Of a stretch of DNA of 64,000 nt, positions 21,313 through 59,654 are shown in pieces (position 1 is the stretch's first letter; every line of letters begins with the position of its first letter). Position numbers and translations under genes: made by a program. The notes under the pieces are model-generated. The model was not told the origin of the DNA. It was given only the letters and a program-made list of their open reading frames with translations, and searched no databases. This DNA is from a phage. Where the stretch lies: assembly GCA_025611195.1 (NCBI GenBank), contig GCA_025611195.1_4718.1; one strand, 5' to 3'.

Positions 21313-21383
21313 TTTACCTTTCTATGTTAGGTGGATTGCGGATAGAAGAATCAATGCATAAACTAATTTAAGTTTGTTAAGGT

Positions 21384-22286
21384 TTACTTAGCCTTTGAGT
21401 TATGCGGACTAACATGCTGTTGTACTCGTTGGATTGTATCGTAGTACGGGTTAGATTGGTTGAACATGTTGTTGTGTGGGGGATAGCCATATGGCGCATT
21501 TTGCCTTGTTGGTGAGAAACCTTGTTGAGAAGGACGGTTTGAATTAACCGCGAGTACGTAGTAAACCAAATTTTGACGGTCGAATGTTCCTTCGTTTTTG
21601 AAAGTGTCGGCGTAGGCTTTTACCGCTGGAGTGAGCCTATCACCATCGGCTGTAATAATTGTACCGTCTGGGTAAACTTCCCGAACGACGCACCATGTTC
21701 CGATGAGAACATCTTTAGGTGCTGTATTACCATATCCGGTTGTAACGGTAAGGTAAGTATCGAACCCTTCAGAACAACAAGGATGACGATAGATGGGTCC
21801 TGTCATTTCCGTTCTATCGGTATCGCTACATTGTTCTATTGAGAGCGATGATGTGTCGGTTTTGAAATTGTCAAATTCTTTCTTTAAGTCGATTACGGGT
21901 TCTTTCGTATAGTACTTCTTGATTGCTTTGACGTAAAGATCAGGAACGGTTGTCAGCAATCCGTTATACCTGATTCTCAGGTTTTCGAGTAATCCAAAGA
22001 TGCTCGCGCATGCCTGTTCGCGAGGTTTTGTAAGATAAGAGATCCCCTCAGGAACGCTGGGATCTTTGAGAAAGAAGATTGCGTTATTGTCGTTGTGCGA
22101 TGCGTTGAAGAAAACGATTGATTCGATATATACGGAGCATAGGCTGTCATTGGCGTCGTCAGATAACACCCAGATGCACTCATCGGTCGTCTTGTTTAAA
22201 AGTTCTGTTTTGTCGACCAAACGTTGTTTCATTGCGAGGAAATGTGCCTGTTGTTCAGCAGTTAATTCACGATAAATAGTGGTCAT
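21384..22286 (-). CDS. hypothetical protein, Cys-containing paralog of 22372-23145
   Basis: AAGGAG SD before ATG 22286 (track start 22364). Shares (G/K)PIY(R/I)HP(C/E)C...YL(T/T)(V/I)T.G...REVYPDG(T/R)I with the upstream gene. Confidence 0.7.
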   Translation of the reverse strand: MTTIYRELTAEQQAHFLAMKQRLVDKTELLNKTTDECIWVLSDDANDSLCSVYIESIVFFNASHNDNNAIFFLKDPSVPEGISYLTKPREQACASIFGLLENLRIRYNGLLTTVPDLYVKAIKKYYTKEPVIDLKKEFDNFKTDTSSLSIEQCSDTDRTEMTGPIYRHPCCSEGFDTYLTVTTGYGNTAPKDVLIGTWCVVREVYPDGTIITADGDRLTPAVKAYADTFKNEGTFDRQNLVYYVLAVNSNRPSQQGFSPTRQNAPYGYPPHNNMFNQSNPYYDTIQRVQQHVSPHNSKAK

Positions 22287-22331
22287 GTTGGGCTCCTTGA
22301 TTACGATAAGGATGATTGCGGTTTTGTGGGT

Positions 22332-22364
22332 TTGGTAGGGCCCTAAACAAAGGAACCCTACCAA
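22332..22364. terminator. hairpin between the two Cys-containing paralogs
   Basis: ttggtaggg-(15-nt loop)-ccctaccaa, 9-bp stem. Confidence 0.4.
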
Positions 22365-22371
22365 TATTAGG

Positions 22372-23145
22372 TTAATCAGGATCGGCGTAGAAATGGTGAG
22401 GATAGCCGGAGTACGATCCTGCGTTACCGGCTATGGATTCTTTCTGGGAATCGACGACGAGCGCATAGAACTGTCGGGAATTTGTTAGCGTTGAGAAATA
22501 AGCGGAAAGGACTTTTTCATTCAATGCATCACAAGGTAGGCAGGTGCGACCGCAAAACGTCACGATACGGCCGTCAGGATAGATCTCACGAATCATTCTC
22601 CACTCACCGATATCCACTGGTGATGGCGCTGCTACACCACCTGTTATCGTTAAGTAACGATCGTACGTGGTATGGCATTCAGGATGAATATAGATCGGCT
22701 TGTTCGTTTCGACAGGTTCCGAAGTATCTCGACGACTAAGAAGCTCAACGACTTCAAGATAAATCGTTGGTAGATCGCGGAGAATACCGGTGCTACGACG
22801 TTTCTTTGTGATTCGCGGACGAATCTCGTTGAGAGCGTATTCGAGCTTACGTTCAGCTTCGTACGCATCGAGTTTTATCAAGCGACCCGGTTCATCGGAA
22901 TGATCCTGAGTTACGTAAACGAAATACGTGTCGCCTTTTGCAGCGTGAAAGATTCGAGCGACCTTAAATGTTTCTACGGTACGATAACCAAGGCGCGATT
23001 GATTTTCCACAGGAGAAAATATCCAATGCCGTCCTTCGTCAGCCTCAACAATTTCGTTGAAACTATCTGTCTGTTCTGGGACCTGGTAGTCAGCCAGTAA
23101 TGTGTCGAGAGCATCATCAGCCAGTTTGATGTAAATATCTGTCAT
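22372..23145 (-). CDS. hypothetical protein, Cys-containing paralog of 21384-22286
   Basis: GAGGA SD before ATG 23145; C-terminal KPIYIHPECHTTYDRYLTITGG...IREIYPDGRIVTFCGRTCLPC. Confidence 0.75.
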   Translation of the reverse strand: MTDIYIKLADDALDTLLADYQVPEQTDSFNEIVEADEGRHWIFSPVENQSRLGYRTVETFKVARIFHAAKGDTYFVYVTQDHSDEPGRLIKLDAYEAERKLEYALNEIRPRITKKRRSTGILRDLPTIYLEVVELLSRRDTSEPVETNKPIYIHPECHTTYDRYLTITGGVAAPSPVDIGEWRMIREIYPDGRIVTFCGRTCLPCDALNEKVLSAYFSTLTNSRQFYALVVDSQKESIAGNAGSYSGYPHHFYADPD

Positions 23146-28600: not shown

Positions 28601-31600
28601 TTACTTGTAGGCACCGCAGTGTGCTTTGATGAGGAAAAGCACCGCTTGCATCGGTTTATTGAACTGTTGCCATAACGTCAATGCCGGATGGAACAACCAA
28701 TCTTCCAGGCCAAGAACAATACCGTAGTTAACGACATTATTAACATCGTTCTCAACGTTGAGTTCGCTATCCAGGAATTTATCGATTGAACGCAGGGCCT
28801 GCATGGCGTTGTCAGCAATAAGCCACGCTTCATGCGCTTCACGAGCCGCACGGAGCAATGCTTCCAGTTCGCTGGTGCTGGCTACCGGTAACTCCTCACT
28901 GGTGAGGTCGTCAGAAACCGTAAACTGGCGATTGATACCGGTGTAGATCCACTGCATCAGTTTCGCCGCTTCCTCGTTCGGGTTGTTACGTGTTGTCGCA
29001 TAGGTCGCGCTCATCTTCACGATATGCGTTTCACCAAGATACGCTTTGGACCCAACGCCTTTACGATCGCTGTCTTTCCACGGCTGTACGGTAGCGACCA
29101 TGAGCTTATCCCATTTCTGAATAGGAATACGCTTCAGACCAACAACCGATCCGGCGGATGTTTCGGACTGGTTGCTCTTCCGCACTTCGCCGAGTTCACG
29201 ATCGATAGCAACGATTAATTCACGCGTCATGTTACCAAGCATTTTGATTTCACCCAACGCAGCGATAAGCTTCTTCACATCGGTAATCGGTTCACCACCG
29301 ATGGTAAGATGACGGATGAAACGTTTCAGAATAATCCGTTCTGCTGCTGGGTTACCGCGACGCGCTTTAGCCAACGCTTGCTGTGTTTCGGCGAACAGCT
29401 TATCCCATGGAGCCGTAGCGGCGGTATAGTAACGGTGGTTGGTTTCAATCCAGTTACCGATACGGTTGACCGCACTCTTAACGGTATCCATGAATCCTTC
29501 CATCGCAATTTCGGTAGCTTCGACGTTACCCTGGAAGTTATCAGGACCGATCTCGCGTGCCGCTACCAGAATACCTTCCACCGCACTCACCGCATGCCGA
29601 CCGATAGCCAGATTTCGCTGTGCTTCTTCAGCACGCTCAACGAATTCCACCACTGCAGGATCGTCAACGATTTCCGCCTCGACAACAACACGTGTACCCG
29701 CATCACCTTCCAATGTCTCGATAGTGACAACCGGATCGTTTTCACCAGCAACATCCTGGTACTCTTCCTGTTTGAGTTCGCCGTTATCGGCCGCTGCGAC
29801 AGCGGTGAGTATACGGACGGTAACATCACCGAGTTCTTTCGCAGCGAATCCGTAGACGGTGCATGCTGTTGTCGCAAAGTTCATCAGTGCGCGTGTGCGT
29901 TTAACGATGTAGCCAACGCCGTAGTCACTACCGTTCTTATCGAGGTCGCGGATTAACCGTTCAGCTGTCTCCTGAAGTTGTGTAGCTGCTTTCAGAAGGT
30001 CTTCGTTAAACAGTTTCGTTGACGCATCGATCAGCATATCAACGCTAACGTTAGACGGTACGGCATCATCCTGCTGTTTCATGGCGCTAAGTTCGTCGCG
30101 GAACTTACGGATACCGTCTAAAGCGGCGTCGGCACTATGTCCGAACGCGGCCACGCCAGACATTGTTGTTGCTGTCAGCATGTCCGTATCAGCGTTTGGA
30201 CTTTCGCCTTCTTTAAGATCCTTCAGCTGGTCGAAGAACTTACGGGATGCTTCAGCGATACGTTTGCTGTCTTTTACCGCGTTTACGATTTTATCGACGG
30301 ATTTAGCATCGTTCGCAAGCAGCGTATCGAGTTTGTTCCATTCGACGTTGACTTTCTTTTCATCCGAAGTATTACTCGGTGGAGGAAGCAGTTTCATCAC
30401 CGGTGCTGTGCGTTGTTCTTTGGTCAGCTTGTTGGCCTTCCCTTCGATTTTTTTCTTATTAACACCAAAGAGATTTTTCAAACGCGCCACGAGGGCTTTT
30501 AAGAACTTCGCGACCGCTTCGTAAACCGATTTCAGAATCTGTTTAAAGCGACCCGGCTGCTTTTCCCCGTCTTCCAGATTAAGATCGCTGTTCAGCGCGA
30601 CATCAAGCTGTTTGTACGATTCCATGATGTATTCGTCTTTGATTTCAGGACGAATCTCGAAGCTTTCCATCGGACCTTCAGCCGGACGGAATTCCATTTT
30701 CAGTTCGCCTTGCAGAGTAGGGTCGACAATGGCGATCGCTTCACCCTGACCATCAGCGTTAAAGCGTTCAGCGTAACGAGTACGACGAACAATAACACTC
30801 TTATCCCCATCAAGACGACGTACCACCATGGTGCCAGGAATGTACGGTTGTTCTGTTTCAATGACGGTAACATCTGTCTCACCTTCACCGAGAATAACCG
30901 ATGCGCGCTGTTCAACAACAGGAACATCTAATACACCACGGGCTTCCAGCTCTTGATGAATTTCGAACGACTCTTGTTTCAGATCTTTATCTTCTTCGTT
31001 TTCGTCGTCTTCATCGTCACCTTTGGTGTTTTCATCACCCTCGGTGGTTTTGGTGTCGGCAGCATCAGCATCGGCGTCTGCGTTGGTGGGTTCTTCGGAC
31101 GCAGGTTCGGCGGTGCCGTCCTCGGTAGGCGTTTCATCAGCGTTATCGACATCAACATCGCCTTGCAGTTCTGTTTCCTGAGCAACTGCTTCGGCTTTCT
31201 GCTCGCCGGTATTACCGTCATTAGCGTCGACAGCAGGTTGTTCGTCAGCGACGGTATCTTCAACCTTTTCTACTTTCTCTACGACACGTTTAATCACAGT
31301 GACTTTGATGGGTTCTTCCGTTGTTTTGGTTTCTGGTACCGCATCGGCTACCGCAGGTGCTGTTTCAACAACAGGTTCTGCTTCTTCCGGTTCGACGACA
31401 CTACCTTTAACACCCTCGGTAGTTTCCGCAGGTTGTGCTGCCTGTTCGATTTGTGTTGGGTTGGTTGGATCGATGGCGTTAGCCGCATCCTGAATCTTGT
31501 TCTTCAGGTTATCGCGGTCAGCGTTAACGGTCGGGTCATTGGTCACTTTCGGTGCCGGTGTTTCGGTCGGTGCGTTTGCCGGATACGGGTTCTTCGGCTC

Positions 31601-48374: not shown

Positions 48375-51179
48375 TTAAGCTAATTTACCGAAACCGGCTT
48401 TCTGTAGTTTCTCGTTGATGATTTTCGCTTCAGCGAAGACGTAATCGCGGTAGGCGGTCACTAACGCATCCACACGTGAACGCAAGGCTTCTTCGAAGCT
48501 ATACCACGCTGCGATTTCACGAATCTGTGCGTTGATATAATCAACGGTTGAGCGAAGCTCGGTTGCGTTTTCTTGCGGGATGGCTTTCACCTGGCGAGCA
48601 ACGTCATTTAAACGACGGAACTGTGTTTCGATTTCTTTAAACTTACTGTCGGCAAGTTTGCTGAATTCGTCACCGGAACGGGTAAATAACAGATAGCTGT
48701 TGCCGTCAAGTGCGGTCGCTAACTGCTGAAGTACGTTGGTGTCCGGATACACAGGAGTACCGCTTTGCAATACTTTCTCACCGAATTCCGCGAAGTCCTT
48801 CGGCGGTAAGTGTGCAGACGTTGTCAACTCGTTGAAACGGAAAGTCAGCGAATTATCATAAAGCATCCGGTACGCTTCCATACCCTGTTTCATGGTACCA
48901 GCCAGGTTAGCCAGACGCGGAGCAATCTCACCTTCTTTAGCGCGTTTCTGATCTTCTAACGCCCCTTCGAGTTCTTTACACTGGTCATTCAGATACACGA
49001 TACGATCGGGACGCAGACGACGCATCTCACGAAGAATAGTATCCAGCTTACCTTCCTGGAAATAACCTAACGTTAAAGACGTACACGCTTGCTGAAGACG
49101 ATCGAACACCGGTAAGGTCACCATCTCTTTACGGATACCATCAACAATCGCAGAAACAGCCGAAAGTTTCTGTTCGGTGGTTAATGGAGCGTCAGAGACC
49201 GACTTGCTGGGCGCGCCAACAACGTTACGCATTGCGTCGGTATCCTCGGTTTTATCAACCTCTTTACGAACGTTCTCATCAGGAACATAAACGTTCGCGT
49301 TACGTTTCGCCTGCTTGATGGCGTCGTTGGCTGCTTTTTCGGTGGCCGCTACACTATCGGCACGTTTCTTCAAGAGTTCAATAATCCAGAGCAACAGACG
49401 ACGAATCGCTGTATAGGCTGTCGTGATGATGACACCGATAACAGCCATCTTCATGATACCGAACGATTCCATGGTCGGCTCTAACGCCCGGTCTGGCATA
49501 TACCGTTCACGCAGTTCCAGATAGATCTGCTCATCTGGTTTGCTGATCTCACCACGATGCGAAGTCCGATAGATGGCTTCGTCAATCTCAACAAGATCTT
49601 TACGTGCTTGACGGTCTGTTTCGGTCAAATAAGCGCAGCCGGATACGTCGTCTTCAAAACTTTCGAACTTAAAGAAATCGACAACCATCTTGGCAAGCGC
49701 CTCTTTCTTAGCAGGATCGAGCGTCTTCGCATCCTCTTTTTGCTTATCCATTTTTTCCTTGAATTTCTCTTTATAGTCATTCAAGGGTTTTACCGCTCTT
49801 GCCTTCAACGCGTTATAGATAGCTTTCCACTCATCGTCACGTTCGAGGACAATGAAATGGTTCTTGAGTTCGAAAGCACGATAGCGTGCAACGAGCTGTT
49901 CTACCTGAATGTGAGCGAGTTGGATATCCATTAACCAACGCGACATCGCCGAGATCAAACGGCTATAAGCGAACAACGTTTGGTAGGTTAACTTCATGTA
50001 TGTTTCATACAGCTCAATATCGCCGCTCTGAATATTGGCTGTTGGATTCATTTCCTTTGTTGCCCTGAAGACCTGTTCTGCTTCTCTCAGCGTCTTTTCG
50101 AACTTAACGTCATTAAACGCAGTGAATGGTTCAGCCAACTCATGCATTTTATCGTGGAGTTCGCGGATCCAAGATTCCTTGCTGTCGCGGATGGTGTTTT
50201 CATCATGGAGCGCAGTCTGATGTTTTCGTACCCATTCTTCCACGATATCAGCAGCTGCAACCACCTGGACACGATCTGAAATCAATGGGACAATCGCGTG
50301 AAGTGCCCCAACACATTCTGGCGTGTCCCAGTGTTTCTGGAGGTCACCACGGAAACGGTCGATGTCTTTTAAGGTGGTACCTAAGTCAAGGAAAGTGCCG
50401 CCATTATGACTCATTTGTGCGACAAGATCGGCAAATACCTTTTGTTTTTCGATGACAAAAGGAACCATCCGCATAAGCCATTCAGCAGTTGCTTTAGCCT
50501 TTTCTTTCAGATTTTTGTCGGCGATTTCTTTAAGGTTAATCGCGCTACTGTATCCTGCAAGTTCGTTGTAGACGTCGTTAACCGTCATCTCTTTATCCAA
50601 CATTTCTTTGAAACGTGGATAATCTGCACCTAACGCGTCGATGACTTCTTGGATGATGTCGTCTGTGGTGGCGATAAATTTATTTGTGCCACCGTAATGT
50701 TTCCAGATTTTCTGTAGCATCTTCTTAAAGAATTCGAAGACGAATGTCCAGATACGCTTGATGAGTTCCCAGACTTTCTTCGCGCCATCGACAAACAGTT
50801 TAGAGACCTTGGCAACGAATCCTTCCTGTACCAACTCAACGCCGTTACGTGATGGGATTTCCGTGAAGAAAGCATCTGGCAGTTGTTTCGGGAACGCATC
50901 GCCAAGACGCATACGTAGTTCAGGTACATCGGCACGAGAGATACCGCGTGTTACTAACTGTTCGTGAAGACGAACATTTTCTTCACCAGAGGCTACGAAT
51001 TCGTTAACGTCAAATGAAACCAGTTCTTGATCTTCGGTGGTGACGACGCTTGAACCATCACTGGTTTGGATGTCTTCGTCAGGGAACGCCATCAGCATAC
51101 CGTGACGCATTTCAACCACTCCGTAATCGGTTGCTAAACCGAATTCGTTGTGATCGGGAGTAATAACTGGGATACTCAT
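48375..51179 (-). CDS. large inner-body-like family member (934 aa) with one hydrophobic helix
   Basis: ATG 51179 overlaps upstream stop; motif VELVQEGFVAKVSKLFVDGAKKVWELIKRIW; hydrophobic segment MAVIGVIITTAYTAI. Confidence 0.75.
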   Translation of the reverse strand: MSIPVITPDHNEFGLATDYGVVEMRHGMLMAFPDEDIQTSDGSSVVTTEDQELVSFDVNEFVASGEENVRLHEQLVTRGISRADVPELRMRLGDAFPKQLPDAFFTEIPSRNGVELVQEGFVAKVSKLFVDGAKKVWELIKRIWTFVFEFFKKMLQKIWKHYGGTNKFIATTDDIIQEVIDALGADYPRFKEMLDKEMTVNDVYNELAGYSSAINLKEIADKNLKEKAKATAEWLMRMVPFVIEKQKVFADLVAQMSHNGGTFLDLGTTLKDIDRFRGDLQKHWDTPECVGALHAIVPLISDRVQVVAAADIVEEWVRKHQTALHDENTIRDSKESWIRELHDKMHELAEPFTAFNDVKFEKTLREAEQVFRATKEMNPTANIQSGDIELYETYMKLTYQTLFAYSRLISAMSRWLMDIQLAHIQVEQLVARYRAFELKNHFIVLERDDEWKAIYNALKARAVKPLNDYKEKFKEKMDKQKEDAKTLDPAKKEALAKMVVDFFKFESFEDDVSGCAYLTETDRQARKDLVEIDEAIYRTSHRGEISKPDEQIYLELRERYMPDRALEPTMESFGIMKMAVIGVIITTAYTAIRRLLLWIIELLKKRADSVAATEKAANDAIKQAKRNANVYVPDENVRKEVDKTEDTDAMRNVVGAPSKSVSDAPLTTEQKLSAVSAIVDGIRKEMVTLPVFDRLQQACTSLTLGYFQEGKLDTILREMRRLRPDRIVYLNDQCKELEGALEDQKRAKEGEIAPRLANLAGTMKQGMEAYRMLYDNSLTFRFNELTTSAHLPPKDFAEFGEKVLQSGTPVYPDTNVLQQLATALDGNSYLLFTRSGDEFSKLADSKFKEIETQFRRLNDVARQVKAIPQENATELRSTVDYINAQIREIAAWYSFEEALRSRVDALVTAYRDYVFAEAKIINEKLQKAGFGKLA

Positions 51180-51616
51180 GCATTCTCTCCTTGCAGTGCG
51201 TTAGCGAAAGCTGTTGCAAGTTGCGCAACCAGTTTCGGATCAACGCCTTCGATAACGTCGGGCAGCCCCGCGGTTTCTTGGTCACGAACAGCAGCTGCTA
51301 ATAACAGCATGGTTTCAGGTGCTGTCGGCTCATGCACCATGCGGTAACGCAGGCACCAGAAGTAGCGGGCAACGTCTAACGCATCAGCCAACCCAATAAC
51401 CAGCACCTTGTTCAGCTTATCCAGCCCTTCACGGATTTTAGGGAGATGTTCACGAACGAAAATGCTATCTGCGGTCAGATCTTCTTTTTCAGCGAATACC
51501 GGCATGCTGTAACCAGCGATGTAACCTGCGGCAATACTCAATGCACGGGTCTGTTGTTCGGCCGGGAAATCACGTACCAGGTCTTTCAGCTGAACGGCGA
51601 AATCAGAAATATTCAT
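51176..51616 (-). CDS. hypothetical protein (146 aa)
   Basis: Coupled (ATGA overlap) to the downstream gene. Confidence 0.65.
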   Translation of the reverse strand: MNISDFAVQLKDLVRDFPAEQQTRALSIAAGYIAGYSMPVFAEKEDLTADSIFVREHLPKIREGLDKLNKVLVIGLADALDVARYFWCLRYRMVHEPTAPETMLLLAAAVRDQETAGLPDVIEGVDPKLVAQLATAFANALQGENA

Positions 51617-51645
51617 GTTAAATTCCTTTATAGTGAGGTTAAAGA

Positions 51646-52965
51646 TTAGGCGACAATAGAGTCAAGTGTTGCTGCCGTTTTAAACAGATCGTTGTTGATA
51701 ACCGTAGACAGTGTTTTCTGAACCTGCTCCTGCTTCACGGCTTGCTGAACATCAGAACGCAACGCGATGGTAATGAGCTCCATAACGGTACGATTATCGT
51801 TGACCGTTTTCAAGATCTTGTCGATTTCTTTTATCGCGTCTAGTGTCGAAACGCGGATATCCTGAGGTAAATCACGATCTTTAAGACGTCCAACCAACTC
51901 TTGTTTTAATTTCGCAACACGATCCTTGTCGCTGGTGTACGTGGAATAGGTAAAGTCGTATAGTGTTATTGTTTTCAGGTTGACGAAAAGAGCTACCGTA
52001 CTCATTGTACCCAGGATTGGGTTAATTAACGATAAACCAACGATTGCGCCAATAACGGACAATGAACATACAGCATATTGCGTCCAAATACTATTGCGAT
52101 CCCTTACTGATATTTTTCCGAGACGTTTGTAAATTTTTGCTAGCGCGTCTGCCATTGCAGCTCCGCCGCCATGACGGGTGACGAATTGATCGGCGACAAA
52201 TTCCGCTGAAGTATCGGAATAGCGACCCATGTGCGTTGCGACACGTGTCTGCTCTTCTTTATTGCTTATATACACGGTGTACCAGGTGGCAACATCGCTT
52301 GATTCCGCAATGACGTTGACGTCAACCGTTGTACCCATCGCATCGTTTAATGATTTCGCGAGCGTGATCTTTTTCTCTTTATCTGTTGTTTGTAGTAATT
52401 CGCGTGCGGCGGTTGCGAGAGAAAAATCCGTCTTAGCGGATTCGGCGATAAATTCCAGGAAAGTAAAAGCGTGCCCAACTTCGTGCAATACAAACGCTGC
52501 TTTGTTTTCCGGAGTGAATTCCGTATCACGAATAAATCCGTCGGTTACAAATACGCGGATAACGATTTTCTCGAACGCACCTTTCACCCTACCATTGACA
52601 AGATCGACCACACCGACGATTTCATCGATATTCTTACTTAACTGTTTAAAATCTCTGTTTCGATAGAACTGTTTACGCCATTCTTCAATAAGCACATTGT
52701 TTTTTGTAATGTCTGGAGTAATACAGGAACAGTTAATTTCACTCATGTTCGGTATTACTTCTGTCTGGATGGTCAACCCAGTGTGTTTGCGTATTAAATC
52801 GGATAGTGGCTTACCACTGATATATTTTACCTTTTCTTCATAGCTGGTAAGATTATCCATTGTTTTGAATAACTCGGTCATTTCCTTGAACAAGGAACCA
52901 TCTTGAAACTTGATGGCCTCCATCGTTAATTCGTCATGACCATACACGCGTTGTAGTAATGACAT
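51646..52965 (-). CDS. putative membrane-associated Zn metallopeptidase (HExxH)
   Basis: GAGAG SD before ATG 52965; motif AFVLHEVGHAFTFLEFIAE (HExxH plus downstream Glu); ~40-residue hydrophobic stretch YAVCSLSVIGAIVGLSLINPILGTMSTVALFV. Confidence 0.5.
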   Translation of the reverse strand: MSLLQRVYGHDELTMEAIKFQDGSLFKEMTELFKTMDNLTSYEEKVKYISGKPLSDLIRKHTGLTIQTEVIPNMSEINCSCITPDITKNNVLIEEWRKQFYRNRDFKQLSKNIDEIVGVVDLVNGRVKGAFEKIVIRVFVTDGFIRDTEFTPENKAAFVLHEVGHAFTFLEFIAESAKTDFSLATAARELLQTTDKEKKITLAKSLNDAMGTTVDVNVIAESSDVATWYTVYISNKEEQTRVATHMGRYSDTSAEFVADQFVTRHGGGAAMADALAKIYKRLGKISVRDRNSIWTQYAVCSLSVIGAIVGLSLINPILGTMSTVALFVNLKTITLYDFTYSTYTSDKDRVAKLKQELVGRLKDRDLPQDIRVSTLDAIKEIDKILKTVNDNRTVMELITIALRSDVQQAVKQEQVQKTLSTVINNDLFKTAATLDSIVA

Positions 52966-52977
52966 TGTACACTCTCT

Positions 52978-52993
52978 AAATTTACGTAAATTT
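52978..52993. promoter_or_regulatory. perfect 16-bp palindrome in divergent intergenic region (candidate operator)
   Basis: aaatttacgtaaattt equals its own reverse complement; centred about 20 nt upstream of the metallopeptidase start codon. Confidence 0.35.
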
Positions 52994-53186
52994 AAGGGCT
53001 AATGGATCGGCTGGCCGCACCAATCACAATGTGTTCGTTGCTATGCAACGGCATTCATAGAAATACCTTTTGACGGTAACATCACCGTTCATACCCCAAG
53101 CGATAAGAGTGGTCGGTTAAAAACAACAGAACGTGGGGATGATATAGAAAATCACCTTTTAACACTTATTACGAGTTTAGCAAGCC

Positions 53187-54938
53187 ATGAGCGAACAAGA
53201 ACGAAAACCTAAGAAGAAACTGCTCGGTATTCAATGTCGACACATCAGCTATAACGAAGCGAACGATGGTAGTAAGAACGACCTCATGATCGCAAAAGAG
53301 ATCATGTTCTTCGATGATAATACGCAAGCGACGAACCTTCGCTTCTTCGAGAATTACAAACGTCCGTTTTGGGTGACGGTAGAGAGTAAACGCAAGAACA
53401 AATATAAAAAGGAAAGCGAGAAGCTCTCGCACGTGCGACGCTACGATGTCCGTCAAAGTGAGCTGGTTGAAAAGATCAGCTCGGTGCTTTATAAAAGACG
53501 TGCTGACGATAACACCCGTTTACAGCAGCTTGCACGGAGTCCCTACCTCTATGGCACGGACGTTAGCGCCAGCTGTTATTTAAAAACCCAATACAATACA
53601 AAATGGCCGGAATACGTCGATAAATTACCCGCGTCTATCGCATGTTTCGATATCGAAACCGATGTTGTCCACGGACACGGTAAGATCGTCTGTATGTCTA
53701 TTACAATGGGATACAATGCGATCCTTTGCTATACCAAGGACTTCGTTGGTCATATTCCGAATGCGATTGAGAAAACCCATGAGAAGATTCGATATTACCT
53801 GGCCGAACGTCTGAACACCAAAGAAGATCCTCATGCGTTCGAAAAATATCAGTACGATGTTCGAATCGTAGAAAGCCCAGCACAAGCGGTCATCCAATGC
53901 ATGCAGAAGGTTCACGAATGGCAGCCGGATTATCTCCTTGGCTGGAATATCGCGTTCGATATTCCGCGTATGCTCCAGGCACTGAACGAGGAAGGGTATC
54001 GTCCCGAGGATGTTTTCTCCGATCCTCGTGTACCACCTAAGTATCGTATTGCTCGCTGGGTACCACCGAAGACCGACAAGGTATCTGCTTCAGGTCGTAA
54101 AACCAACCTTACCCTTGAGCAAACCTGGCCGATGTTTTATACGATGGCCACGTATCAGGTTATGGATGCGATGTGTGGTTATAAGTTCGTTCGTTTAGGA
54201 AGACCGGATGAGGGGAGATACTCACTCGATGCGGTGTTAGAGCGAAATAAATGTCATACGAAATTAAAAGCAATTCCTGGTACAGAGGGGTTCACGGAGC
54301 TTGCGTGGCACGAAGAGATGCAAACGAACCATCAAATCGACTACGGCGTATATAACCTTTGGGATAACCAGGGTATCGAGGCGTTGGACCAGAAAACAAA
54401 AGACTATTCGATGACCATCCCTATTCGTTTGGCAGCATCGGATTTGAAAGATTTCAGTTCTAACCCTAAACGTATCTGCGATAAACTTTTCTTCGTTTAT
54501 CTTAACCGTGGGGAAGTCATGGGATGCACCGCCGACGACATGACCCAGGAAGAAGATAAGTGGGTTATCTCACGAACCGGACATATCGTCACATTGCCAT
54601 GCGATCTCATGGCGGACAACGGCATCCATCTCTTCTGGGATATGCCGAACCTGAGAAGTTATATCCGTCTATTCGTTGCAGACCTCGACATTAGCAGTTC
54701 ATACCCGAATGGGCAGATCCTGTTGAATCTATCCAGAGCATGTGTTTTTCGTGAGCTCTCACGCATTGAAGGCGTCTCTGACTATCAGTTCAGGAAGTTA
54801 GGTATCAACTTTATTACCGGAGGTAAAACGAACGCTGTAGACTTCTGTAGAATCGTTTATAAAGCACCATCGATGTTCGAACTCTTAGAACATTTCGATG
54901 CAACGCGTCCAAAAGGGGAAGCGCGGACCATCGAATGA
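53187..54938 (+). CDS. family-B DNA polymerase, N-terminal fragment (3'-5' exonuclease domain plus motif A)
   Basis: Exo I ACFDIETD, Exo II GWNIAFDIP, Exo III YGVYNLWD, motif A DLDISSSYPN; ORF stops ~75 aa later with no motif B (KxxxNSxYG) or motif C (YGDTDS). Confidence 0.75.
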   Translation: MSEQERKPKKKLLGIQCRHISYNEANDGSKNDLMIAKEIMFFDDNTQATNLRFFENYKRPFWVTVESKRKNKYKKESEKLSHVRRYDVRQSELVEKISSVLYKRRADDNTRLQQLARSPYLYGTDVSASCYLKTQYNTKWPEYVDKLPASIACFDIETDVVHGHGKIVCMSITMGYNAILCYTKDFVGHIPNAIEKTHEKIRYYLAERLNTKEDPHAFEKYQYDVRIVESPAQAVIQCMQKVHEWQPDYLLGWNIAFDIPRMLQALNEEGYRPEDVFSDPRVPPKYRIARWVPPKTDKVSASGRKTNLTLEQTWPMFYTMATYQVMDAMCGYKFVRLGRPDEGRYSLDAVLERNKCHTKLKAIPGTEGFTELAWHEEMQTNHQIDYGVYNLWDNQGIEALDQKTKDYSMTIPIRLAASDLKDFSSNPKRICDKLFFVYLNRGEVMGCTADDMTQEEDKWVISRTGHIVTLPCDLMADNGIHLFWDMPNLRSYIRLFVADLDISSSYPNGQILLNLSRACVFRELSRIEGVSDYQFRKLGINFITGGKTNAVDFCRIVYKAPSMFELLEHFDATRPKGEARTIE

Positions 54939-55017: not shown

Positions 55018-55035
55018 TGGAAGTTTTATGTGTTT

Positions 55036-55485
55036 TTAATTATTGTTGATGGGGTTATCGTCCGGCTTATATTCGATGCCGTAGGCGACGTAACGGTCTG
55101 TCGTATGGACGACAAGCGAGATGGGGAAATCATAATGCGTGGTTTTGTCTCGGACGAGCTGAGTAAAGAGATCCATATAACGTATTAAGTCTTCACTGGT
55201 GTAATCAGAAGGGAAGAAGACGTCGATGGTTATTGAATCTTCATAGAGGCGTATAACCAACTTATCCAGAAGGTCGGCATATTGGTTAGCCGGGGTGACG
55301 TCCAGCTCACAGATATCACGATCTCCTTCGTCTCGTGATACCCACATCATGGTATCCTGTAATGAGGTTTCAAGGATCTCGAAAATGCATTTTGCTGTAA
55401 GTTTTAGTTTATTTGTTACGTCATGGTTAGGTGAATAATGGTCACGGATGTTTTTCACTGCGTCTTTGATAGAGAAAGTCATCAT
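55036..55485 (-). CDS. small paralog family member 1 (149 aa)
   Basis: C-terminal DFPISLVVHTTDRYVAYGIEYKPDDN matches the family FP(I/L)xL...(E/H)YxPD signature. Confidence 0.7.
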   Translation of the reverse strand: MMTFSIKDAVKNIRDHYSPNHDVTNKLKLTAKCIFEILETSLQDTMMWVSRDEGDRDICELDVTPANQYADLLDKLVIRLYEDSITIDVFFPSDYTSEDLIRYMDLFTQLVRDKTTHYDFPISLVVHTTDRYVAYGIEYKPDDNPINNN

Positions 55486-55495
55486 TGATGCTCCT

Positions 55496-56005
55496 TCAAA
55501 TGAAATTAATACGTGCGGCTGTCGAAACGAGTTCGCTTGTAAAGCAATGCTTACCGTCGGTGTTTACCGTGTATGTAAGTTTACAAACCTTAGCGGCAGG
55601 GTTAGCACCGATAACAAGGACGGTCGTCATATCGAACAGTTCCACACGTTGAAGAAATGCCGTATCGGCTACCTTCTGTAAACCGGTTGCTTCAAAATCG
55701 ATGTGGTCGTTAAGAGGCACCAATTGGATTTCAATGCGTTCTTTGAAAAGTTTAAACGTTACTGAAAACCGATGAGGTTCGGTATTAAGCCATAAAGGTC
55801 CACGTTGGAAGTGCTGATATGCTTCATTCGCGGTGTTCTCGAAAACCCAGCAGTCGTGGACAAGAGAAGCCTCTTGTAACGATGATTCCAGGTAGTCAAA
55901 TACCTTGTTTATCGTTTTCTCAAGCATAGGCGCTAGTGAACCAGGGTATCCGGCAAATGCTGCTTCGGCAATCGATTTTATTGATACGATGTTGTTCTGA
56001 CTCAT
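55496..56005 (-). CDS. small paralog family member 2 (about 169 aa)
   Basis: AAGGAA SD then ATG 56005 (track start 56032); architecture resembles neighbours but divergent. Confidence 0.6.
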   Translation of the reverse strand: MSQNNIVSIKSIAEAAFAGYPGSLAPMLEKTINKVFDYLESSLQEASLVHDCWVFENTANEAYQHFQRGPLWLNTEPHRFSVTFKLFKERIEIQLVPLNDHIDFEATGLQKVADTAFLQRVELFDMTTVLVIGANPAAKVCKLTYTVNTDGKHCFTSELVSTAARINFI

Positions 56006-56009
56006 TTCT

Positions 56010-56462
56010 TTATTCCTTGTTGGCTTCTTCAATGTGCTTGGTGTCGTAAGACAAATGCTGAATTAATTTTCTAGGTTCGATGAAAATACGACATGTGATA
56101 AACACATCAGGGTTGTATTGTTCCACGCAACGTCCGAAGGCTCGTTTTGCGGACTGACGCATCAATGTTAATTCCTGATCGTTCATCTCATCATCAAATT
56201 CGATGTGTATCGTGATTTTATCGGGAAATAAATAGATAGAGTAGTCGCTACCGATATCACCGTCGTCAAAACGATAATCGTTGTGGTAATGGTGGAGTTT
56301 ACCTTCGTGTATCGTCTGGTACCACCCAACGATACTATCAAGACCCATACCCAGGCGTCCGAATGCTTGAGTAATAACATCCTCAACGACGGATGCGGGC
56401 GTGGGACCATTGAATAGACGATCTAAGCGCTTTTTCATTGATTTGTCGGTTTTCATGTTCAT
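56010..56462 (-). CDS. small paralog family member 3 (about 150 aa)
   Basis: Track start TTG 56492 lies inside hairpin 56493-56522; AGGAAAAG SD then ATG 56462. C-terminal AKRAFGRCVEQYNPD. Confidence 0.65.
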   Translation of the reverse strand: MNMKTDKSMKKRLDRLFNGPTPASVVEDVITQAFGRLGMGLDSIVGWYQTIHEGKLHHYHNDYRFDDGDIGSDYSIYLFPDKITIHIEFDDEMNDQELTLMRQSAKRAFGRCVEQYNPDVFITCRIFIEPRKLIQHLSYDTKHIEEANKE

Positions 56463-56492
56463 TGTTTCTTTTCCTGTGTAGTCGGTATACAA

Positions 56493-56522
56493 CCCTTCCC
56501 CGGCCTGATGGCTAGGGAAGGG
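56493..56522. terminator. GC-rich hairpin inside the small-paralog operon
   Basis: cccttccc-cggcc-tgat-ggcta-gggaaggg; TATG 56525-56528. Confidence 0.5.
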
Positions 56523-56536
56523 GCTATGCTACGTTG

Positions 56537-56935
56537 TTATGCTTCGCAATCAGCTGAAGACGTCGCGCCTTTCTTACCAGCGATACGCCAAATCCGACAC
56601 GCTGGATAATGGTTAACCTCTAGAGAGCAAGGAATGTTATATTTCTCTTCCAGCGCATAAAGACATTTCGTTAGCTGCTCCAGCGCGTTCTCGTCGTGTC
56701 GTAACGCGTGGTGGCCTAATCGATGTTGGTCGTTCTTTATATACGCCTCGAAGAGAACATGTTGGCGATGTACGCTGACGTTTACAGCCTCGAGTATAGC
56801 TTGGTCGAGCATACGACTAAAGCACATCAACGAGTCAGATACGTTTTCTCGCTTAACCAGATCGATCATGGCGGGAATATACGAATGGTCGATGTTATCG
56901 ATGACCGCTTTAGCGACGGAATCAGCAACGTTCAT
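56537..56935 (-). CDS. small paralog family member 4 (about 132 aa)
   Basis: Track start GTG 56965; AGGGA SD then ATG 56935. Close paralog of 56972-57367 (VAKAVIDNIDH..., EEKYNIPCSLEVN). Confidence 0.7.
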   Translation of the reverse strand: MNVADSVAKAVIDNIDHSYIPAMIDLVKRENVSDSLMCFSRMLDQAILEAVNVSVHRQHVLFEAYIKNDQHRLGHHALRHDENALEQLTKCLYALEEKYNIPCSLEVNHYPACRIWRIAGKKGATSSADCEA

Positions 56936-56971
56936 CTTTTTAATCCCTAGTTTGTTATTGATCACGTATAT

Positions 56972-57367
56972 TTACTCTTTGACGTCAGTTGTCGTTTCGA
57001 CATGCTTCTCACTACTGACGTACCAGAGCAGGTACGCTGGGAAAAGATTGACCTCTAAGCTAAATGGGATATTGTATTTCTCTTCCATTTTACAGAGATG
57101 TTCTTTAATTAAATTTCTCGCGTCTCTGTCACCACGAACAGAGTGCCAGTCTAGTTCTTTGTTCTCCTTTACCAGGACCTCTACGATGATACGTTGCTCG
57201 TGAACCTCGGTTTTCACAGTGAAAAGTAAATCGCTGCTATCAAAACGGGTAAAACGAATGTATGAACCAGGTGTTTTTTCTTGTTTAATAATATCGATCA
57301 TGGTAGAAATGCGCGGATGATCGATGTTGTCGTTAACAGCTTTAACGATGGATTCTACAATGCTCAT
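56972..57367 (-). CDS. small paralog family member 5 (131 aa)
   Basis: IVKAVNDNIDHPRISTMIDIIKQE and EEKYNIPFSLEVN mirror member 4. Confidence 0.7.
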   Translation of the reverse strand: MSIVESIVKAVNDNIDHPRISTMIDIIKQEKTPGSYIRFTRFDSSDLLFTVKTEVHEQRIIVEVLVKENKELDWHSVRGDRDARNLIKEHLCKMEEKYNIPFSLEVNLFPAYLLWYVSSEKHVETTTDVKE

Positions 57368-57399
57368 TTTTTATCCTTAATGTTATCGATTTGGAAATA

Positions 57400-58167
57400 T
57401 TACTTATTTTTGCTTTCTTTATAGACAGTTGTTACCCACGATGGGAAAGCCGGATGGAAACAGAGCGTGAACGTAACTGTCGTATCGTATTTAAACGCGC
57501 AGTTCACTAACCGGGTATCGAACGTTTTCCTTAGACCATCATCATCGTTATCGATGACAGCCATATCTCTTAATATCCCAAGCACGTTAACGCCGTCGAG
57601 TGTCTGGGTTACGACAAGTCGTCGTAATGGCCCGCATGTATAGTCACGTACAAATCCTTTCTTCGGGTCCGATACCCTGTTTAACGCATCGTGATTTTTG
57701 ATGAATTCATCGGCGATACAATAGGTTTGTTCCCTTGCTTTATCGGGATCGTATTCTGCTAATAGTTCCTTCGTGTCGAACGTTATCATGTTATTATCAT
57801 TCGATTCAGAAGGGAAACATAAAACTAAACGAACAGGGTATTCGTATTGATCTGTTCTTGTTTCGAAAGCATTAGCTAGACACGGCTTGTATGCCTTTGC
57901 GTCGACATTGTCCAAACATGGATGCAATAATGCATGAATAACGGCACCATCGTCAGTTAAACCGAATTCCAGAAATTGTACTTTATCAGTATCCGCTACG
58001 GTTTTCTGAAGATACGCTTTACCGTTTACGATATCGGTATCCCACATATCGTCGTTTAACGATTCTTCAAACTTATCGAATATATGGTTTACGAGATTGA
58101 CGAGTTCATCAATACGGCACTGTTGGTTGAATTCGATTAATCGCTGAACTTTATCTTTGATAGACAT
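57400..58167 (-). CDS. small paralog family member 6 (255 aa, apparently two-domain)
   Basis: YEYPVRLVLCFPS...EYDPD signature plus a second VTFTLCFHP strand. Confidence 0.7.
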   Translation of the reverse strand: MSIKDKVQRLIEFNQQCRIDELVNLVNHIFDKFEESLNDDMWDTDIVNGKAYLQKTVADTDKVQFLEFGLTDDGAVIHALLHPCLDNVDAKAYKPCLANAFETRTDQYEYPVRLVLCFPSESNDNNMITFDTKELLAEYDPDKAREQTYCIADEFIKNHDALNRVSDPKKGFVRDYTCGPLRRLVVTQTLDGVNVLGILRDMAVIDNDDDGLRKTFDTRLVNCAFKYDTTVTFTLCFHPAFPSWVTTVYKESKNK

Positions 58168-58169
58168 GA

Positions 58170-58628
58170 TTACCCCTTAGTTTCTTCTTCGTCTGGAGAG
58201 TACTCCATTGTGTAGAATTCATAACCATCGGAAAACTTGAGTGTTAATGTAATAGGGAAATCGCACGGCATAGCTGATTTCGTAAACGCGTTATTAGCAA
58301 CATCAGCCAACCGACGTATAGCATCAGTCCCGCTGACGCTGAACGGTAGTTGTATGTTGATAAGGATGCGGTGCTTGTAAACATGGAAAACAACGGTACT
58401 GTCAAGATAAACGCTATGGAACGGTATTGTTGGGATGCGTTCCACGATGGTAAAATACGTCCCGTCATTATCGCTATGTCCCATCGACCAAATATCGGAT
58501 TTGCGTAGATTTTGTTTGAGGGATTCGATACTTCGAGTGACGGTATCAACAACAGGCGTGACGTAAGTGTCTTTATGCGAGTCGAAAAGTTCGTTGACGT
58601 TAGATTCGAATGAATACATTGTTGCCAT
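58170..58628 (-). CDS. small paralog family member 7 (152 aa)
   Basis: QLPFSVSGTDAIRRLADVANNAF...CDFPITLTLKFSDGYEFYTMEYSPDEE; start ATG overlaps upstream stop (TAATG). Confidence 0.75.
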   Translation of the reverse strand: MATMYSFESNVNELFDSHKDTYVTPVVDTVTRSIESLKQNLRKSDIWSMGHSDNDGTYFTIVERIPTIPFHSVYLDSTVVFHVYKHRILINIQLPFSVSGTDAIRRLADVANNAFTKSAMPCDFPITLTLKFSDGYEFYTMEYSPDEEETKG

Positions 58629-59089
58629 TATTCTACCTCTTTCTTCATCTTCATCGGAACAGAGAGTGCTGTTATCTCTGTTCCATTATCCGGTTCATAC
58701 TCCAATGTAACGAGATTGCAGCCATCCGATAATTCATAATCGATCGCTAGGGGGAACGAGACACCGTGCGACTTTATGCATTTACCAAATGTCTCGTTGG
58801 CTGTATACATTAGAAGTTGCTTTGCGGCAAGCCCGTTTACGCTGAAAGGTAATCGTGCTGTCGCAGCGATACGATTATTGTAAACTCTGATATCGGTGAT
58901 ATCTACAATCGTAGCATTGCCGTGTTGTGTCGTTGGAACGGATAGGCTGTAGAAGTAAGGTTCGGAGTCGGAATCGGGCTCGTTAAATAATTCCCAGCAC
59001 CCGTCCTCCTGCAATCTTACTTCGAGTATTTCAAAGCTTTTAATTATCGATTCTACCAGCTGCTCACCGTAAGAATCCCATGTCGTCAT
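58628..59089 (-). CDS. small paralog family member 8 (about 153 aa)
   Basis: Track start GTG 59107; AAGGTG SD then ATG 59089. RLPFSVNGLAAKQLL...VSFPLAIDYELSDGCNLVTLEYEPDNG. Confidence 0.7.
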   Translation of the reverse strand: MTTWDSYGEQLVESIIKSFEILEVRLQEDGCWELFNEPDSDSEPYFYSLSVPTTQHGNATIVDITDIRVYNNRIAATARLPFSVNGLAAKQLLMYTANETFGKCIKSHGVSFPLAIDYELSDGCNLVTLEYEPDNGTEITALSVPMKMKKEVE

Positions 59090-59159
59090 TTTTAACACCT
59101 TCGACACCTTTTAACCGATGCGTGCCCCACCTAACAAGGGACACGATATCGTTGATTAA

Positions 59160-59654
59160 TTACTCTTCTGTGTTTTCATTGTCAGGATCGTAATGGAATT
59201 CGAACAGCCCTGAACCGTCATGTCCGTTGATTGTTAGTATAACGGGCATATCGAATCCTCGGACGCGCGAATGAAAACACTGTGCTAATTTTAGTTTGGC
59301 GTATGCCGCTATTTCATTGACGGCAATACACGACTCACCTGTTATACTCAGTATAACGTCGATACTAACAACGTTGTCGTGCAACGCAAAACGCCAGCGA
59401 TCGATACGATTATTATCTTTAGCAGCTGTCTCGTTTACGAGATAGACTTTATCGTCAACTGACAAAGCAGGGCTCCAGCAACGTTCGTTTATTAAATTCG
59501 CCTGGAGTTTTAGTATCGTCTGATCAATAATATCCCAACACGCAACCAGTGTGGTGTCGGGCACTGAACAGAGAAGGGCGAGCACTTTATCCTTTATTTT
59601 AAGTGCTTCCACAGAGCGTCCGCAAATACCATGCATTTCAACCTTCTTATTCAT
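59160..59654 (-). CDS. small paralog family member 9 (about 164 aa)
   Basis: Track start GTG 59660; AGAGGTG SD then ATG 59654. ...FDMPVILTINGHDGSGLFEFHYDPDNE. Confidence 0.7.
   Translation of the reverse strand: MNKKVEMHGICGRSVEALKIKDKVLALLCSVPDTTLVACWDIIDQTILKLQANLINERCWSPALSVDDKVYLVNETAAKDNNRIDRWRFALHDNVVSIDVILSITGESCIAVNEIAAYAKLKLAQCFHSRVRGFDMPVILTINGHDGSGLFEFHYDPDNENTEE

Follow-up and report, generated by a model that had tools for sequence, protein, structure and literature searches.

A probable head-packaged M48-like zinc metallopeptidase with a hydrophobic hairpin and an exchanged gene body in a Goslar-like jumbo phage

Introduction

SPN3US gp45, phiKZ gp84 and Goslar gp67 (also written gp067), all from the 'Group 1' phiKZ-like jumbo phages, are the closest described counterparts of the gene studied here. 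SPN3US gp45 is a head protein from which the prohead serine protease gp245 removes an N-terminal propeptide of 20 residues, comparable to the capsid-targeting sequence of phage T4 (PMC5694885, PMC10052503), and phiKZ gp84 is annotated as 'structural head protein'. Iyer et al. 2021 named the family a conserved, uncharacterised zincin-like metallopeptidase (PMC7824862). In this work we analysed a stretch of phage DNA of 64,000 nucleotides (assembly GCA_025611195.1, contig GCA_025611195.1_4718.1; hereafter the window) and in it the open reading frame (ORF) 51646..52965 on the minus strand, which is complete, starts with ATG and encodes a protein of 439 amino acids (aa). Escherichia phage Goslar, which is a nucleus-forming chimallivirus, proved collinear with the window (94-95% DNA identity, only five stretches lacking a match), and its gp067 is the positional ortholog of the ORF, with 48% protein identity over the full length.

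A survey of the literature on gp84, PHIKZ084, gp084, M48 or zincin in jumbo phages indicated that only Iyer et al. 2021 comment on function, while the gene appears, untested, in the interaction-proteomics and antisense datasets of phiKZ. Since some database records are also already labelled peptidase, M48 or zincin, the central claim of a zinc-protease-like head protein is not new. What is added here is a predicted assignment to the M48 type with E255 as third zinc ligand, the connection of this prediction with what proteomics and genetics have shown for gp45, gp67 and gp84, and a family-wide cleavage-site logo, a conserved hydrophobic hairpin and an allele swap.

The cellular M48 enzymes (ZMPSTE24 and Ste24p of M48A, HtpX of M48B, BepA and Oma1; PF01435) cut proteins at the membrane surface, and to our knowledge none of them is packaged in a virion. 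The minigluzincins (proabylysin, projannalysin and selecase), which are soluble proteins of ~100 residues, and the M56 proteins BlaR1 and MecR1, of which BlaR1 carries a four-transmembrane zinc-protease domain coupled to a penicillin sensor, scored below M48 proper. On the phage side the comparison set consisted of the T4 internal proteins, whose capsid-targeting sequence is cut by gp21, the injected proteins phiKZ gp93, gp95 and gp97 and Goslar gp58, the membrane-inserting ejection proteins of T7 and P22, and SPN3US gp47. What these capsid-targeted internal and ejection proteins have in common with the window protein is a short N-terminal propeptide that the prohead protease cuts off, a copy number in the tens per head and a hydrophobic stretch resembling those found in proteins entering the host envelope; they differ in that injection was observed for some of them, whereas it is only proposed for the window protein. 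We know of no zincin among them.

Results

Family membership

The window protein matched phrog_2767 over residues 12-435 (E=1.8e-73; PHROG label 'unknown function') and was homologous to phiKZ gp84 (hhalign probability 99.8%, E=2e-27) and to SPN3US gp45/SEGD1_047 (BLASTP E=2e-22), the record AMR59696.1 being SEGD1_047 and 100% identical to SPN3US gp45. SPN3US gp45, phiKZ gp84 and Goslar gp67 resemble it in full-length homology, in size (~410-450 aa), in locus position, in the catalytic residues, in the hydrophobic hairpin and in an N-terminal [SAGT]-x-E site. Homologs were found by tblastn in 199 phage records, labelled mostly 'virion structural protein' or 'hypothetical protein' and in a few cases 'peptidase' or 'beta-barrel assembly-enhancing protease'. 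Searching 1.84 billion cluster representatives with the family profile gave 2,669 members at E<=1e-3 and 1,398 at E<=1e-30, nearly all of 410-450 aa, and an exact-sequence contig lookup did not find the window protein.

A few members were longer. P0126 (1,237 aa) and P0174 (1,224 aa) carry ~800 extra N-terminal residues that match no known family, while P0179 (669 aa) has a C-terminal phrog_10766 domain, an extension unrelated to the gp85/gp66 genes. Such proteins could have arisen by true gene fusion or by faulty gene calling, and they were dropped as informative fusions since the fusion partners match nothing known.

Catalytic motifs and relationship to M48 peptidases

The HExxH motif that the sequence-only reading of this DNA had reported is present: the sequence HEVGHAFTFLEFIAE begins at residue 161, and its motif, H161-E-V-G-H165, is encoded at 52471..52485 on the minus strand. 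Translated in six frames, the window contains nine HExxH motifs where 3.4 would be expected from its composition, so that the motif alone is weak evidence; the copy at residue 161 is considered real because it is conserved across the family. Alignments of 143-149 family representatives with less than 50% mutual identity and a mean column identity of 27% indicated that the only invariant residues are G129, H161, E162, G164, H165, E255, D259 and R349. A second HExxH (NGIHESFHRNF) was noted on the plus strand near 29489 in an open frame of 245 codons; the region corresponds to minus-strand Goslar genes, and this copy has probably arisen by chance in an antisense frame.

Comparison of the family profile with the PDB sequences retrieved human ZMPSTE24 (E=3.4e-4) and yeast Ste24p (E=0.022). 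The alignment with ZMPSTE24 consists of two collinear blocks, in which the HExxH corresponds to HELGH 335-339 and SAEFVAD corresponds to RRFEFQAD 412-419. The second block contains ZMPSTE24 E415 (E415-F-Q-A-D), which we take to be the third zinc ligand of that enzyme, and its counterpart in the window protein is the ExxAD motif E255-F-V-A-D259 (52189..52203, minus strand), of M48 type and with E255 and D259 invariant. From this alignment E255 is the likely third ligand, and the prediction of H161, H165 and E255 as zinc ligands and of E162 as general base is strongly supported. The sequence-only reading had pointed to a glutamate closer to the motif. That residue, E171, is present, but it is conserved in only 93% of the representatives and would lie, six residues past H165, on a different helix face; it was rejected as third ligand in favour of E255, where the M48 alignments put the ligand.

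When members were searched individually, Pfam Peptidase_M48 (PF01435) was matched by 37 of 100 at E<=0.1 (best E=3.3e-5), the next family being matched by six, and where found the match spans the HExxH helix to the ExxAD helix. The catalytic domain, residues ~65-282 (52120..52773, minus strand), is composed of a beta-sheet subdomain, the HExxH helix, inserted helices and the ExxAD helix, and shows a zincin/gluzincin catalytic fold nearest to M48 structures. A chance HExxH in a non-protease fold, suggested by the surplus of such motifs in the window and by the failure of the query alone to give a significant Pfam or PDB sequence match, is refuted by the conservation and the fold, with both the HExxH and the ExxAD aligned to ZMPSTE24, and we give this explanation almost no credence.

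The window protein nevertheless differs from the cellular enzymes. The spacing between H165 and E255 is 90 residues, with a helical insert of ~50, against 76 in ZMPSTE24, and the seven-helix chamber of Ste24, the N-terminal transmembrane pair of HtpX and the TPR domain of BepA are all absent. In their place are found one hairpin after the catalytic domain, a predicted capsid-targeting propeptide and a phage-specific C-terminal helical bundle of residues 343-439 (51649..51939, minus strand; invariant R349 and near-invariant Y343, D344, K362, E420 and N425). Similarity to Ste24 is restricted to the catalytic core, with a Foldseek global TM-score to ZMPSTE24 of 0.22.

Several searches gave results that temper the assignment. 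The query alone did not match PF01435 at E<=1, and SPN3US gp45 (17.7 bits), P0033 (17.6) and Goslar gp67 (11) all scored under the PF01435 gathering score of 20.3. Against NCBIfam nothing was significant, with only faint HtpX matches at E>0.04, and the query alone retrieved nothing significant from the PDB sequences. The M48 signal is thus derived from family profiles and member-by-member scans, not from searches with the query alone, and the geometry of a zinc site formed by H161, H165 and E255 is itself a prediction. Unlike M48 proper, the window protein falls below the curated-family thresholds of Pfam and NCBIfam; we describe it as M48-like and consider that it very probably works like an M48 gluzincin.

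Head location and propeptide processing

The virion proteome, proposed by the sequence-only reading as a check, has been published for the Goslar ortholog. Goslar gp067 was detected in virions purified on caesium chloride (CsCl) by 19 peptides with 47% coverage, including the peptide AAIMLHEIGHAFTFLETLSETVR, and its estimated copies per virion were 32/48/76 (preprint 10.64898/2026.04.21.720040, Table S4).

Alignment of the N-termini revealed that the SPN3US site, in which gp45 is cut between A-S-E20 and S, corresponds to T-M-E16 followed by A-I-K-F-Q in the window protein. The cleavage-site logo of the family reads [S/A/G/T]-x-E before the cut and [A/S]-I-x-F-Q after it, with Glu at P1 in 148 of 148 sequences and S, A, G or T at P3 in 97% (Thr, as in the window protein, in 10 of the 148); [S/A/G/T]-x-E is the motif of the phiKZ-type prohead protease. 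A cut by the prohead serine protease after T-M-E16 is therefore predicted for the window protein, with codons 1-16 (52918..52965, minus strand) as the N-terminal propeptide. In the AlphaFold2 model residues 1-14 had a predicted local distance difference test (pLDDT) score below 50 and were disordered. The propeptide would act as a capsid-targeting sequence, sending the protein to the prohead.

The gene also appears to be needed in phiKZ, where transposon sequencing (TnSeq) recorded in the filtered table 0 insertions over the 1,242 bp of PHIKZ084, where the genome as a whole averages one per 42 bp; this count is open to polar effects, as orf85-86 were also without insertions and yet can be deleted (PMC12676376). 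Taken together, we consider with high confidence that the product of 51646..52965 is packaged in the head and processed by the prohead protease, and that its M48-type active site is intact.

These data bear on the roles proposed by the sequence-only reading, namely a non-virion membrane protease active in lysis regulation, in the processing of membrane-associated phage proteins in the infected cell or in an Abi/CAAX-like function. Such a protein would account for an HExxH together with a hydrophobic segment, and the CAAX protease Ste24/ZMPSTE24 is among the M48 relatives. The orthologs, however, are head proteins by proteomics and substrates of the prohead protease, the neighbours are capsid and DNA polymerase genes with no holin, endolysin or spanin adjacent, and the likeness to Ste24 covers the catalytic core without the membrane chamber. 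No match to PF02517 (Abi/CAAX, Rce1-like) was obtained for the query, nor was this family among the top families in the 100 members; PF02517 proteins have a multi-TM domain and are not based on HExxH, which is the catalytic motif here. The lysis and Abi/CAAX roles are not supported, and a non-virion membrane protease of the kind proposed is very improbable. The same reading had expected a protease different from the serine-type prohead protease; the M48-like zincin core agrees with this, but judged by its orthologs the protein is something that the prohead protease cuts and not a substitute for that protease.

The hydrophobic hairpin

The window protein has only one hydrophobic region, located C-terminal to the ExxAD helix, the remainder being the helical bundle, for which no match was found. 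Kyte-Doolittle (KD) windows of 19 residues exceeded 1.6 for residues 293-326 with a peak of 2.0, and the stretch as a whole covers residues ~293-335. The AlphaFold2 model, with a predicted TM-score (pTM) of 0.88, places helices at 290-314 and 316-335, and residues 290-335 (51961..52098, minus strand) are accordingly designated a helical hairpin and candidate membrane-insertion element. The stretch is ~43 residues long, against 40 in the sequence-only reading, which had also set it too far from the HExxH, since it starts ~130 residues after the motif and not 150.

A hydrophobic segment is present at the same position in 141 of 149 members. Across the family the hairpin region is the most hydrophobic (mean KD 1.5-1.9, 2-8% charged residues) and at the same time the least conserved in sequence (entropy ~3 bits), and hydrophobicity that is kept while the sequence changes is expected of a segment facing lipid more than of a specific docking surface. 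Apparent free energies of 19-residue segments were calculated on a biological hydrophobicity scale and gave a median of ~0.8 kcal/mol for the best segment of each member and of ~10 for the second, which is poor. The two segments of the query were marginal, at 2.4 and 4.1 kcal/mol. Room for two membrane helices, as had been suggested, is a generous estimate, because most members have one segment of transmembrane length and not two. Since the capsid is without a membrane, the hairpin must be shielded by protein in the virion.

Exchange of the gene body

Alignment of the window with Goslar revealed DNA identities of 93-100% on both sides of the gene and of 30-70% inside a cassette extending from ~51640, at the stop codon, to 52861, at codon 35 (51640..52861 by sliding identity, codons ~35-439). 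Two allele types could be distinguished, with protein identities of 96% over residues 1-34, 38% over residues 35-351 and 61% over residues 352-439, while the hairpin was 5-15% identical. Both types were present among the ~240-kb Goslar-like genomes from public assemblies, and in both the catalytic residues are all kept. The window protein is therefore an allele distinct from Goslar gp67, 48% identical to it in a genome otherwise 94-98% identical. No other virion gene of the window was exchanged as a sharp cassette relative to Goslar, and the adjacent vertex-complex genes, orthologs of gp65 and gp66, were not swapped. A sharp-edged exchange of this sort would be typical of phage proteins that meet the host.

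Co-conversion with a homing endonuclease was considered as the cause of the swap but is not supported; Goslar has an HNH gene at a distance of 1.8 kb, yet the DNA polymerase sequence that lies between shows 95.7% identity.

The exchange and the hairpin must be set against a role inside the capsid, in which the protein, after losing its own propeptide, would make extra cuts or degrade released propeptides and scaffold fragments before DNA packaging and would not be needed in the host. This is essentially what Iyer et al. 2021 suggested for the same family (PMC7824862). Head location and processing by the prohead protease are in agreement with it, as are the propeptides of such phages, which measure 111-254 residues and must leave the head, the position of the gene beside genes for the capsid interior and its apparent essentiality in phiKZ, which fits a morphogenetic role. 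On the other hand, in the SPN3US work the 14 cleavage sites that were mapped are all assigned to the serine protease gp245, which leaves no orphan cleavage for a second endopeptidase, the conserved hydrophobic hairpin has no obvious use in such an enzyme, and cassette exchange is unexpected for an internal housekeeping enzyme next to gp65 and gp66 genes that are 94-98% conserved. We regard a maturation or clean-up peptidase as a real though doubtful possibility.

Genomic context and neighbouring genes

The gene is followed, after a gap of 29 nucleotides, by a gene for a 146-aa protein (51176..51616, minus strand), ortholog of Goslar gp66 (92-98% DNA identity; phmmer E=1.5e-96), and this overlaps by four nucleotides the gene for a 934-aa protein (48375..51179, minus strand), ortholog of Goslar gp65 with ~94% DNA identity; all three have one orientation. 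On the other side a 221-bp intergenic region (52966..53186), 95-100% identical to Goslar, is shared with the divergent DNA polymerase gene. Phages of this type transcribe with their own RNA polymerases. The arrangement of the gene between a DNA polymerase gene and a small ORF was also found in Goslar, phiKZ, SPN3US, SEGD1, SPFM19 and Simmy50, while in PA1C the small ORF follows the family gene and the polymerase is not adjacent. A larger gene comes after the small ORF, and in Goslar and phiKZ these are vertex-complex genes; Goslar gp66 and gp65 have been equated with phiKZ gp85 and gp86 and belong to a vertex binding complex on the inner capsid surface (preprint 10.64898/2026.04.21.720040).

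The small gene evolves very fast, its counterparts in six phages (L001, L002, L003, L004, L006 and L009) falling in six different PHROGs, and BLASTP of the 146-aa protein against phiKZ gp85 gave no similarity, though the Goslar preprint treats the two as structural homologs. The 934-aa protein showed a weak PHROG match to 'tail length tape measure protein' (E=0.002), a label that would be an annotation error because the Goslar ortholog gp65 was placed by cryo-electron microscopy (cryoEM) in the inner-capsid vertex binding complex.

This neighbourhood is where a fixed structural role has to be considered, with ~55 copies of the protein beside gp65 and gp66 at the 11 non-portal vertices, the hairpin serving as protein anchor and the peptidase site being vestigial or used once. 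The Goslar estimate of 32-76 copies brackets 55, orientation and tight spacing are shared with the two vertex-complex genes, an unassigned cryoEM density adjoins gp65 (preprint 10.64898/2026.04.21.720040), and the pTM of 0.88 implies one compact fold. In contrast, the invariance of all catalytic residues over very deep divergence speaks for a functional enzyme, the vertex-complex models of phiKZ and Goslar do not contain the protein, and a hairpin only 5-15% identical between the Goslar-type alleles is unlike a docking interface whose supposed partners are near-identical. A fixed vertex component is on balance unlikely.

Three further differences from Goslar were noted in the window. The DNA polymerase ORF 53187-54938 (plus strand) is continuous and encodes 583 aa, with a junction near 54682-54702, whereas the polymerase annotated in Goslar (NC_048170, 79690-82469) has 499 aa and a NUMOD1/HNH homing-endonuclease gene, gp069, comes after it, the insert of ~1.8 kb being absent from the window; from the sequence, the window polymerase looks like the endonuclease-free allele of the gene interrupted in Goslar. 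A 1.8-kb insertion at 21361-23140, absent from Goslar, carries two paralogous ORFs, 21384-22364 and 22372-23145, both on the minus strand, of 326 and 257 aa respectively, which share a motif of the form IY(R/I)HP(C/E)C...(F/Y)D.YLT(V/I)T.G. The region 55031-59181 is variable, with small minus-strand genes of the Goslar gp070-074 paralog group and stretches that are without a blastn match or 87-91% identical, against 94-95% elsewhere.

Discussion

The mechanism that we prefer, tentatively and as an unproven proposal, begins with an M48-like, gluzincin-type zinc metallopeptidase that the phage packs into its own head. The mature enzyme would be stored in the DNA-filled head with the hairpin 290-335 shielded by protein contacts, and at infection it would be expelled together with the DNA and other internal proteins. 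The hairpin would then insert into the host inner membrane or into the early-infection (EPI) vesicle derived from it, and the enzyme would cut host or co-injected proteins at the membrane surface. The ejection and membrane steps are proposed because the hydrophobicity of the hairpin is conserved without its sequence, because the gene body was exchanged as a cassette and because phiKZ-like phages inject many head proteins into a membrane-derived vesicle (PMC13282480). That an M48-type protease, injected and inserted into a membrane in this way, is at work during the earliest minutes of infection, either building or opening the EPI compartment or cutting host envelope or defence proteins, is a more speculative extension, possible rather than probable.

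A number of observations weigh against expulsion and membrane insertion. Exit of the protein from the capsid is at present a proposal only, and in phiKZ some internal proteins are injected while gp89 and gp162 stay behind. The Goslar copy number of ~48, near 55 (11 vertices x 5), and the orientation shared with the two vertex-complex genes would fit a fixed capsid location equally well, and the density beside gp65 points the same way. The marginal free energies of the query, the single transmembrane-length segment of most members and the high pTM, which in the model suggests that the hairpin packs onto the fold, are likewise unfavourable, and possible polar effects in the TnSeq data weaken the case for essentiality. 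Among the more distant structural matches (BFVD) are 'zincin protease' proteins of Bacillus phage AR9, and we know of no EPI vesicle in the AR9 group of phages. Finally, the literature contained no activity, zinc binding or substrate for any family member.

For annotation, ~200 records now named 'putative virion structural protein' or 'hypothetical protein' could be changed to 'head-packaged M48-like zinc metallopeptidase (predicted)', and labels such as 'beta-barrel assembly-enhancing protease' should be dropped. Were the enzyme instead at work within the capsid, head maturation, thought to depend on a single serine protease, would involve a second protease.

Of the dozens of proteins that phiKZ-like and nucleus-forming jumbo phages pack into their heads, few show an active site that can be recognised as enzymatic, and this family is among them. 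A family conserved across the whole group, apparently needed in phiKZ and furnished with a membrane-type hairpin is a concrete candidate for the membrane stage of infection, at which the injected genome is enclosed in a vesicle of host-derived membrane (PMC13282480). Should the proposal of an injected membrane protease prove true, the allele swap would record an arms race with the host, the membrane stage of chimallivirus infection would gain its first assigned enzyme, and the M48 proteases would gain their first member delivered by a virion.

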